From positions 46,626,001-46,690,000 of the forward strand of contig NC_087251.1 in the NCBI RefSeq assembly GCF_037042905.1: a stretch of DNA of 64,000 nucleotides, in the 5' to 3' direction. The stretch is from Lytechinus pictus (taxonomy: Eukaryota). The notes under the pieces were generated by a model. The model ran no database searches and was not told where the DNA came from. It worked only from the letters and a program-made list of their open reading frames with translations. The position numbers and the translations under genes are program-made. Shown here piece after piece: positions 308 to 3,300 of the stretch (position 1 is the first letter of the stretch; each line of letters starts with the position of its first letter).

Positions 308-3300
308 CTGTGCTGCATGCCTCATTGCATCAAACGTAAGGAAATCATTCTCTTTGATCTGGTACTGATCCCTCAGGTACTCCAGACGAGCCTTCAGAAT
401 CCTAGACTGTGTGTAGACGTAAGGTATACCAAGCATCACCACTGCTCTCCCAAAGTGATGATCTACGATAGGAGAAAATATCAAGAATGGGATTTCAAAC
501 TATTCTGTCTATATCTGACATTTCACGATCAATATATTCTGAACAAGGTCAAATTGAGCCCCCCCCCCCCCCCACCCCATGAATTCAAGGTTGGAATGAT
601 TTGTCATTGATCCCTCAGATACTCTAGACGAGCCTTCAGAATCCTGGGCTGTGTGTAGACGTAAGGTATAACAAGCATCACCACTGCTCTCCCAAAGTGA
701 TGATCTACGATAGGAAAAAACATCAAGAATGGGATTTCAAACTATTCTGTCTATATCTGACATTTCATGATCAATATATTCTGAACAAGGTCAAATTGAG
801 CCCCCCCCCCCATGAATTCAAGGTTGGAATGATTTGTCATTGATCCCTCAGATACTCTAGACGAGCCTTCAGAATCCTGGGCTGTGTACAGACGTAAGGT
901 ATACCAAGCATCACCACTGCTCTCCCAAAGTGATGATCTACAATAAGAGAATGGGATAAACCCCTATGTCAACTGGTGAACTGACATTTTATGATTAATA
1001 TCTCCTGAACGGGGTACAATTGACCTCTTTCCTCTTGAACTTAAATTTGGAACAAAACAGTTAGAATAGGGTCAGAATATAAACTATTACATTTGTTAAA
1101 ATGAAAAGACTTGTTCATTCATTTTTAAAAATCTTCCCATTTGTGAAAATCTGTATCACTCCAAGGATACAATTCAAGGGCCATGTAACTGTTTTGAAAA
1201 TGGGGGGGGGGGGCTGACCATGCAAAAAATAATATTTTACGTTTTGTACACATTTACTGAAAAAGTGCAGGGGCTAAAGTCCCCTCAGCCCCCAACCCCA
1301 CCTCCCCCCTGTTCCATCGCCCGTGTAATGCACACATTTTTCTGATACAATGGAAAAAAAATCGATGCATCCTTGATGAATAAATTGCCTGGTTATTTAA
1401 TTTTTTTGACAACAAATTTAAATAATCAGGCAATCTTCTCCTCAAGGATGCATTAATTTTTTTCATTTCAGTGTAAACATGTATGACTATCTACAGACAT
1501 AATGGCCCAAATTTACATAGGTAGTTTTGAAAACCCACGGTTGAGTCCATGGTTTATGCAGATTTTCTGTATAAATTATGCTTACTTTAGCGCATATCGG
1601 GCACGTGTATAGAAAATGTCCAATGCTGATGCGCGCTTTTGTCGCAGAGCGCCAAATTGACGCCTGTTGCCGTGGTTATCCACGCTATTTTATTCATGAA
1701 TCCACTGTTTTTAATAAGTTCACTCTTCAAACAGTGGACTCATGAATAAAATAGTGTATCTAACCATGGCAACAGGCGTCAATTTGGCGCACTGTGACAA
1801 AAGCGCGCATCAACATTGGACATTTTTTATACACGCGCCCGATACGCGCTAAATTAAGAGTAATTTATACAGGAAAGCTGCATAGACCATGGATTCAACC
1901 GTGGGTTTTCAAAACCACCTTTGTGAATTCGGGCCTCTGTTTCTTATCAACGTGCAAACTGAGATGCTTCAGTCACACCTGACTGCACCAGCTCCAAACC
2001 AACTGATGGTATGCCATCTAAAACAATGTAATAGTATACAAATAGCGAATAGGCATGAGTGCGATGGTGCGGGATTTCGCATGAGACGAAAGAAAGATGC
2101 TCTATTCAACGAGGCGTGAGCCGAGTTGAATAGAGCATTTCTTTCTTTCACCGAATGCGAAATCTCGCACCATTGCACGACTAAGAATATTCGCTATTTG
2201 TGTTGTACAACGCCTCGGAATTTAGCGAAAATATGAAAAAACAAAGAGTTTATCCCTATAGTAATCTATGAAAAGGGAGCAAAAATACAGAAAGCAGAAA
2301 GCAAAATCCCACAAGCGCACATGACCTAGCTTGGGCAGCCTTGCGCATTTAGCCAGCTGGCTTATACGCGTATTGTTCATTTTTACCAAGCGCAATGAAT
2401 TAAATCGTATTGTGACGTCACCTCCTAAAGCCGTGCAACAGTACATTTTGGATGGTACGTCGTGCGTGCAACGGTACAAATGTTTGACATTCAGTCTCCC
2501 ATTTGCTCGCGTACAACAAGCTAAGTAGGCGTTGTACAACCTTGATTGTTCTGGAGTCATTTTACATTGGTGTGACTGTGGTATGACAAGGTATAACTTA
2601 CCAAAATCAATTCCCTCGGACACCTTGCCCCGGGCTACAGACAGCAGAATAGCACCTCGGCCGTTCTCACAAGCCTAGAAAAGGAAATCAAATGACACTT
2701 CAGTCAATGTATGCCCATTTGCGCAGTTTGATCTTTGTTTCATAATGCATGTTTTAAATAACTACAAGTCACAGTCTCACTTAACTGGTGCAGATCTTCA
2801 GTTCCATGTAGGATGTGTTCACAAATTTCTTCGCAAGGCTAACATAATTATCATCACAGGCTTCTTCACAAGGACAACGTATAAGTTTCCACAAGTAGCC
2901 TTTGATAAATGCACACACCAGTCCTTTCCAATAAGCTGGAACAATTATTAACTTTGATTCCATAAATTCAATAAAATATCAAAGTGCAATGTGCAGCCCA
3001 CGCATCATAGATGAAAATTCTTCAACATATCCTTATGAAGTACAAAAGTAACTGATTTGGGAACAATATAGTGTCAAGGAGATGTTAAAGAGATCGGGGC
3101 CCGTCTTACAAAGAGTTGCGATTGATCCAATCAATCGTAACTCGATGGAAATCCATCAGTGTCATAATTTTTTCAATAGGAAATTTTTACAATGTCCTTT
3201 GTAAACAAAGAGAAGCACAGTGAATTTTCAAGAAAACAAGGAATGCATGAATATACATCATAGTTAGAAAATATTTTGAACAAACATGAATAATACATGT

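Follow-up and report, generated by a model that had tools for sequence, protein, structure and literature searches.

Does the sea urchin Lytechinus pictus make any use of the two additional splice acceptors that stand, each with a piece of exon behind it, directly upstream of one exon of its ERCC2/XPD gene? The window, which is the whole stretch of 64,000 nucleotides that was analysed, contains 18 ERCC2 exons of 64–169 nt on the minus strand, from 22289 to 308, which encode residues 3–658 of the 761-aa Lytechinus XPD (P0121, XP_063958985.1) exactly. The last placed exon (308..462) carries P0121 on to residue 663; the first short exon and those after 308, the latter outside the window, are unplaced. 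The 51-residue product of this last exon aligns to residues 612–662 of human XPD, and the database model P0121 uses exon 462–308 alone and neither of the copies. The XPD of L. variegatus (P0003) differs from the window product at several residues. We propose that the segment is an intron-exon boundary tandem repeat, or mirage, and consider it likely that its extra units are skipped and have no function. The parts of the locus are the following, in transcript order.

2602..2674, minus strand: upstream ERCC2 exon of 73 nt, with a phase-1 donor at 2602; RNA reads 12/4/2 at 2627 and 2633.
938..1052, minus strand: outer intron-end unit and acceptor, with 75% identity to the inner ones; acceptor matrix score 5.2.
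830..937, minus strand: exon copy 1, corresponding to exon bases 1–108, with 10 differences (6 in bases 1–97), TGA at 839–837 and no donor; spanned by the X1 contig on 925–683.
705..829, minus strand: end of the intron with a G-run and an acceptor, differing from the native end by 3 substitutions and a 9-nt gap in the G-run; matrix score 8.6.
597..704, minus strand: exon copy 2, corresponding to exon bases 1–108, with 9 differences and TGA at 606–604, likely a hybrid; RNA depth 0 in bin 668–784.
463..596, minus strand: native end of the intron, with the acceptor that the annotated exon uses; matrix score 7.3.
308..462, minus strand: true ERCC2/XPD exon of 155 nt, residues 612–663 of the 761-aa protein, donor at 308; RNA reads 8/7/10 at 404.

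An earlier note on this DNA had described three units of about 240 bp across the intron/exon junction, with acceptors at 937, 704 and 462, and this arrangement is borne out. The first exon bases lie at these three positions on the minus strand, with spacings of 233 and 242, and TRF reports a period of 242 with 2.5 copies and a score of 1002. The units run head to tail across the intron-exon boundary, with three acceptors and 108 nt of exon behind both extra ones. Both copies are in frame and reach TGA after DQ, as had been read from the sequence, and the Q of RDQ is residue 644 of P0121; the substitutions called before (S>P in both copies, with G>V added in that at 704 and Y>C in that at 937) also hold, and so does the loss of the native donor, the exon-derived part ending at base 108 of 155. 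As a correction, this part spans 108 nt and not 97 nt (830–937 and 597–704). Copy bases 98, 100, 101 and 104 differ from the exon, the last four match, and the intron homologue begins directly after. Because the exon-derived part reaches base 108, the TGA is a mutated Tyr codon within the copied exon, namely the TAC of the exon altered at two bases. A stop created by the breakpoint is ruled out, the TGA lying 8–10 nt inside the exon-derived part.

The inner intron units are identical at 131 of 134 aligned bases, apart from the 9-nt gap in the G-run. The outer unit is a true but diverged homologue of them: it agrees with them in 75 of 100 aligned columns, and its local score is 91.5, where 500 shuffles reached 56 at most. 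This fits the two rounds of duplication suggested earlier. The window sequence holds no N. When the 36 edges of the ERCC2 exons were searched against the window, clear echoes were found for this acceptor alone; a match of another exon edge, 35 kb off with an E of 0.001, was taken as chance. A 24-nt exon pattern gave 0 matches against metagenome contigs. The exon and its copies also present an internal GT (905, 430 and 671) whose six intron-side bases are the same as at the true donor. Within the 937 copy this GT would bound an in-frame micro-exon of 33 nt, and in the 704 copy it is destroyed by the G>V change.

The units retain splice signals and are possible cryptic sites. The acceptors at 937, 704 and 462 present matrix scores of 5.2, 8.6 and 7.3, respectively, and the 18 real acceptors of the gene range from 2.0 to 12.8; both extra acceptors are within this range and the 704 acceptor outscores the true one. 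Joined to the true donor at 308, the two upstream acceptors give exons of 630 or 397 nt, an option absent from the earlier note. For the donors, pairing with U1 was scored using U1 and donor consensus motifs. The true donor gives -7.2 kcal/mol at best, 23 of the 24 GT sites in the repeat give -5.2 or weaker, and a site in the G-run at 576 gives -9.0 kcal/mol with 4 of 9 consensus matches. In a matrix built from 17 donors of the gene, the true donor is the weakest (0.6), and the sites at 762 and 520 score 4.3. The matrix and the duplex energies thus conflict over the true donor, which makes splice-site strength weak evidence in either direction. All four tested acceptor-donor pairs with at least 5 consensus matches lead to a premature stop.

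The fate of the acceptors in transcripts was followed in three RNA runs (X22, X23 and X24), which come from one study made without NMD block, were picked by species label and were sampled at about 6% of each run. Among the runs listed as carrying the sequence, none was on record as RNA. Splicing was inferred from depth and site counts, the table of joints being filled by transposon reads (MITE-like elements occur in the stretch). At position 404, which discriminates the true exon from the copies, 8, 7 and 10 reads (X22, X23 and X24) represent the true exon, 25 in all. For the 937 copy, 0 reads were found at 874, 889 and 837–839 in the three runs, and bin 668–784, covering 37 nt at the start of the 704 copy as well as the preceding intron unit, has RNA depth 0/0/0. 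The start of the 937 copy shows a depth of about 28 bases in X22 and about 42 in X23, which would fit inside the 48 nt identical to the true exon. Regular splicing of the true exon is therefore undisturbed within these counts (25 reads against 0 on the distinguishing parts of the copies), with a 95% upper bound of about 11% on the use of a copy (0/25, in which read mates may be dependent). The unique intron bins have zero RNA depth, so the presence of the copies in those RNA animals is an assumption. RNA depth on both strands in bin 551–667 is ascribed to the G-run.

At position 404 (exon base 59), the letter of the copies occurs in 4 of 10 X24 reads and 1 of 7 X23 reads, with at least 2 other differences per read. 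This letter is synonymous and is also found in the true exon of X1, and the S>P site is absent among the rows listed; an allele is thus the simplest reading, and a partly converted true exon may also account for it. A coding polymorphism is observed at 3575, where the window and P0121 have Cys, and the RNA majority (6/9, 5/5 and 2/2), X1, P0003 and P0122 indicate Ser.

The earlier note had left the choice between exon definition that suppresses near-identical acceptors and the action of the copies as poison or alternative last exons. The first of these fits the data, and exon definition is a plausible reason for the choice of the true acceptor. The second is unsupported, with 0 against 25 reads, a stop that is not kept in X1 and no poly(A) hexamer (AATAAA or ATTAAA) on the sense strand at 300–1000. 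In the mechanism that we propose, exon definition would join donor 308 to the nearest acceptor and produce the 155-nt exon; the upstream acceptors, which have no good donor of their own, would give exons of 397 or 630 nt with a premature stop, and any leak would go to NMD.

Evidence for the units from outside this assembly comes from the DNA run X1, one of the 4 of 24 listed sequencing runs (with X22, X23 and X24) that were aligned to 200–3700. The intron pieces of X1 (organism A) diverge from the window by about 5–9%, and X1 also departs from it at the exon sites 329, 2627 and 2633, where nearly all reads of the RNA runs (organism B) agree with the window. On this agreement, organism B would be the species of the window and organism A a sister species. 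No DNA run under the likely species label of the window was among those listed. X1 has one contig of 239 nt that aligns end to end on 925–683, with 13 other letters, 4 gaps and a single-copy depth of 35.8, compared with 23–45 for the other listed X1 contigs in repeat-free stretches. It contains an exon copy, the breakpoint, an intron unit, the acceptor and 22 nt of the following exon, and by itself explains the depth in bins 668–784 (3650 vs 3652) and 785–901 (4048 vs 4045). A gene with a single unit is unable to yield such a contig, and at least one extra unit therefore exists outside this assembly; this rules out the whole feature as an assembly artefact. At least one extra unit is probably older than the split of the two species labels. 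For X1 the total is at least one extra unit, counted from 8 of 41,694 pieces listed and with the depth at 434–667 partly unexplained. The third unit has its support in the window assembly and is unconfirmed by X1, which supports at least one extra unit.

The X1 copy has Asp in place of the stop codon and lacks Y>C; it carries S>P like the copies of the window and, in addition, a new I>S. Differences listed between the window and X1 number 5 over 96 nt of the copy and 7 over 121 nt of the intron unit; 143 nt of the true exon show 2, each of them synonymous. These counts are small, and up to 1 and 2 further differences are unlisted. The copy does not differ significantly in rate from the true exon (p 0.12). 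The copy and the intron unit differ between the species by 5–6%, like other intron stretches. Depending on the position of 4 missing letters, the X1 frame would reach a stop at codon 47 or 65, against codon 33 in the window, as random intron sequence would. In addition, every lineage-specific change in the copies hits a conserved residue (Y>C, G>V, I>S, and stop versus Asp), and selection on the coding of the copies is rejected on this basis.

Within the window the two halves of a unit are unequally diverged. The exon half departs from the true exon at 6 or 5 of 97 positions, the intron half from its twin at 25 of 100 (Fisher p 3e-4 and 1e-4), and about 13 differences would be expected in the exon half if drift had acted in the copy alone since duplication. 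The pattern is that of concerted evolution from which the boundary unit is excluded, with exon halves 94–95% identical over 97 nt beside the inner (131/134) and outer (75/100) intron identities. The exon half is far closer to its twin than the intron half is, which indicates gene conversion and unequal exchange. The copy follows the exon of its own species yet drifts between species, for which gene conversion from the true exon would be the best explanation. Differences common to both copies rise toward the breakpoint, with 0 in bases 1–56, 4 in 57–97 and 4 in 98–108. The 704 copy is of the true-exon type at bases 49–50, has copy letters from base 57 on, and is preceded by an intron end of the native type. 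X1 lists 889 and not 888, and probably shares the letter of the 937 copy at base 50.

These observations suggest the following course of events. In an old duplication, about 125 nt of intron end and 108 nt of exon would have been copied. The intron halves would then have diverged (25%), and the exon half would have been repeatedly overwritten, via gene conversion, by the constrained true exon. The middle unit would derive from a recent unequal exchange in which copy and true exon recombined, probably somewhere from base 51 to base 56 of the exon.

Similar structures were searched for in XPD proteins of other species. P0123, a model of 702 aa that is 94% identical to P0003, contains the same exon start twice (residues 612–702). 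Its first copy ends at about exon base 115, which places the breakpoint within about 7 nt of the one in Lytechinus, and both copies carry the residues of that organism itself. If P0123 comes from another camarodont urchin (the purple urchin is suspected), orthology of the duplication is possible; since the model stops at this exon, a broken assembly is an alternative explanation. The purple urchin and L. pictus are about 40 million years apart, according to the part of the source consulted (PMC11688612). If the P0123 duplication is orthologous, a persistence of possibly 40 million years would be unexpected for a removable neutral repeat, which speaks against an inert repeat. A search with the doubled segment of P0123 turned up no other sea urchin protein in which it is present twice. 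Of 213 proteins (best of 1706 and 3780 matches), three contain two copies: P0123 and the insect XPD models P0001 (Bicyclus anynana, 878 aa) and P0002 (Phaedon cochleariae, 824 aa), which repeat the same segment and thus indicate that independent origins occur. The insert between the two in-frame copies of P0001 resembles, by eye, further copies in other frames.

The alternative that survives best, though improbable, is that the upstream acceptors are joined to the true donor at a low, regulated rate, the resulting exons of 397 or 630 nt with their premature stop leading to NMD and lowering the amount of XPD mRNA. NMD substrates are depleted in steady-state RNA, which counts for this alternative, as do the intact AG and pyrimidine tract with the higher score of the 704 acceptor, the persistence of one extra unit under two species labels, the similar copy in P0123 and the fact that the X1 frame stops too. 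Against it stand the 0 of 25 discriminating reads and the copy and intron unit that are as far apart between the species as introns are; moreover, it is the youngest unit that holds the strongest decoy acceptor (704). A more ambitious form of this idea, which we regard as quite improbable, holds that the extra acceptor is orthologous to the P0123 copy, kept for about 40 million years in camarodonts and synchronised by conversion, and that a small, condition-dependent use destroyed by NMD tunes the supply of XPD/TFIIH. If it were true, the regulated use of the decoy would represent a mirage domesticated in an essential gene and a new way of setting the dose of XPD. Among the titles and abstract starts listed from the open-access literature, none dealt with this locus or with a poison exon of XPD.

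To a similarly slight degree it may be that the older extra unit is real and the third is an assembly error, in which two alleles were joined in tandem. The inner units differ by 6 substitutions and the 9-nt G-run gap in about 230 nt, as alleles might, three units are seen in the window alone, and one X1 contig explains bins 668–901. The error is opposed by the window without N and by the 704 copy, which resembles the hybrid of true exon and copy that unequal exchange predicts. The partly unexplained X1 depth at 434–667 also speaks against it, and may be noise of the G-run or another allele. A false tandem of 240 bp is unlikely in a long-read assembly, which argues against the error if long reads were used. 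That the copies are alternative last exons giving an XPD of 644 residues, presumably deprived of helicase motif VI and the p44-binding end, agrees with their frame relative to the upstream exon and the stop after residue 644, and is hardly credible given the poly(A) hexamers missing from the sense strand at 300–1000, the 0 discriminating reads on the copies, the lineage-specific changes that all damage conserved residues and the unlike stop position under the two species labels.

The mirage in ERCC2/XPD is real, fairly old and probably inert, and it can be set beside systems already described. The amphioxus BflGb6 mirages have the same architecture, with varying unit number, concerted evolution and intact splicing in the parts of the report consulted (PMC3087553), and Adh3, TnC and PGBD5 are likewise described, in the consulted parts of PMC3902484, as mirage repeats with regular splicing reported undisturbed. 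As in those parts of the amphioxus account, the unit joins the 3′ end of an intron to the 5′ part of the next exon, the true exon is last, the splice signal is retained, the inner units are homogenised with the boundary unit excluded, and unequal crossing-over is the proposed process. The ERCC2/XPD repeat departs from the amphioxus cases, as far as these parts describe them, in its echinoderm host, its units of 233–242 nt against 10–160, its three units only, at least one unit common to two species labels and an exon half that matches far better than the intron half. The outer intron half falls to 75% here, unlike the 81–100% given for the BflGb6 units in the same parts of that report.

In human F7, according to the section of PMC1557585 consulted, a VNTR of intron 7 consists of 37-bp units that span the donor of exon 7. 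There the repeat is on the donor side, the units are short and, under the scanning rule proposed, it is the first site that prevails; in XPD it is on the acceptor side and the last site is used. Exons 5a and 5b of SCN-alpha are tandem-duplicated and mutually exclusive, with a partial intronic copy in Ciona, in the portion consulted of bioRxiv 10.1101/2025.08.16.670673. The ERCC2/XPD repeat shares with them an exon-derived copy within the adjacent intron. Mutually exclusive exons, as portrayed there, are whole, with both splice sites and conserved coding; in the XPD copies the donor and the final 47 nt are missing, and damaging changes are present. Neither copy is a complete exon with its own donor and an open frame, both ending at base 108 of 155 with a stop inside, and neither is followed on the sense strand at 300–1000 by the AATAAA or ATTAAA of a last exon. 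Known poison exons are mostly strongly conserved, as stated in the consulted part of PMC4379411. As with poison exons, use of a copy would put a premature stop ahead of later exon junctions. Unlike them, as characterised in that part, the copies present no inclusion in steady-state RNA at low depth, no donor, a conservation at intron level (5/96 vs 7/121) and a stop that is not kept.

Other features were observed in the window. Palindromic MITE-like elements lie in ERCC2 introns (3–179, 1495–1944, 2038–2201 and 3091–3361), and several of them recur at other places in the window and are covered very deeply by the aligned runs. Two neighbouring paralogous genes are present at 36836–38133 and 43975–46647 (minus strand), with exons 71–74% identical, and their ORFs, judged by their motifs, are presumably glycoside hydrolases of family 1 (lactase-like). 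A 57-bp minisatellite of about 18 copies, partly palindromic and with long plus-strand ORFs, lies at 53543–54730. A recent tandem duplication (period 198, 96% matches) at 52504–52965 is related to a dispersed repeat at 55052–55198. A low-complexity ORF of 439 codons is found at 58253–59572 (plus strand), and the fragment at 63521–63997 (minus strand) is taken, by a motif, to be reverse-transcriptase-like.

As a likely inert mirage, the ERCC2/XPD repeat is ordinary, and its conversion signature and persistence are of modest value. It serves as an annotation warning, as such copies can enter gene models as spliced exons (P0123 and P0001). It also offers a natural test of acceptor choice, in which an acceptor 242 nt upstream, nearly identical and a little stronger, is apparently ignored. 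A donor-less exon copy that lasts across species and is refreshed by the real exon would represent a clean, small case of concerted evolution driven by gene conversion.
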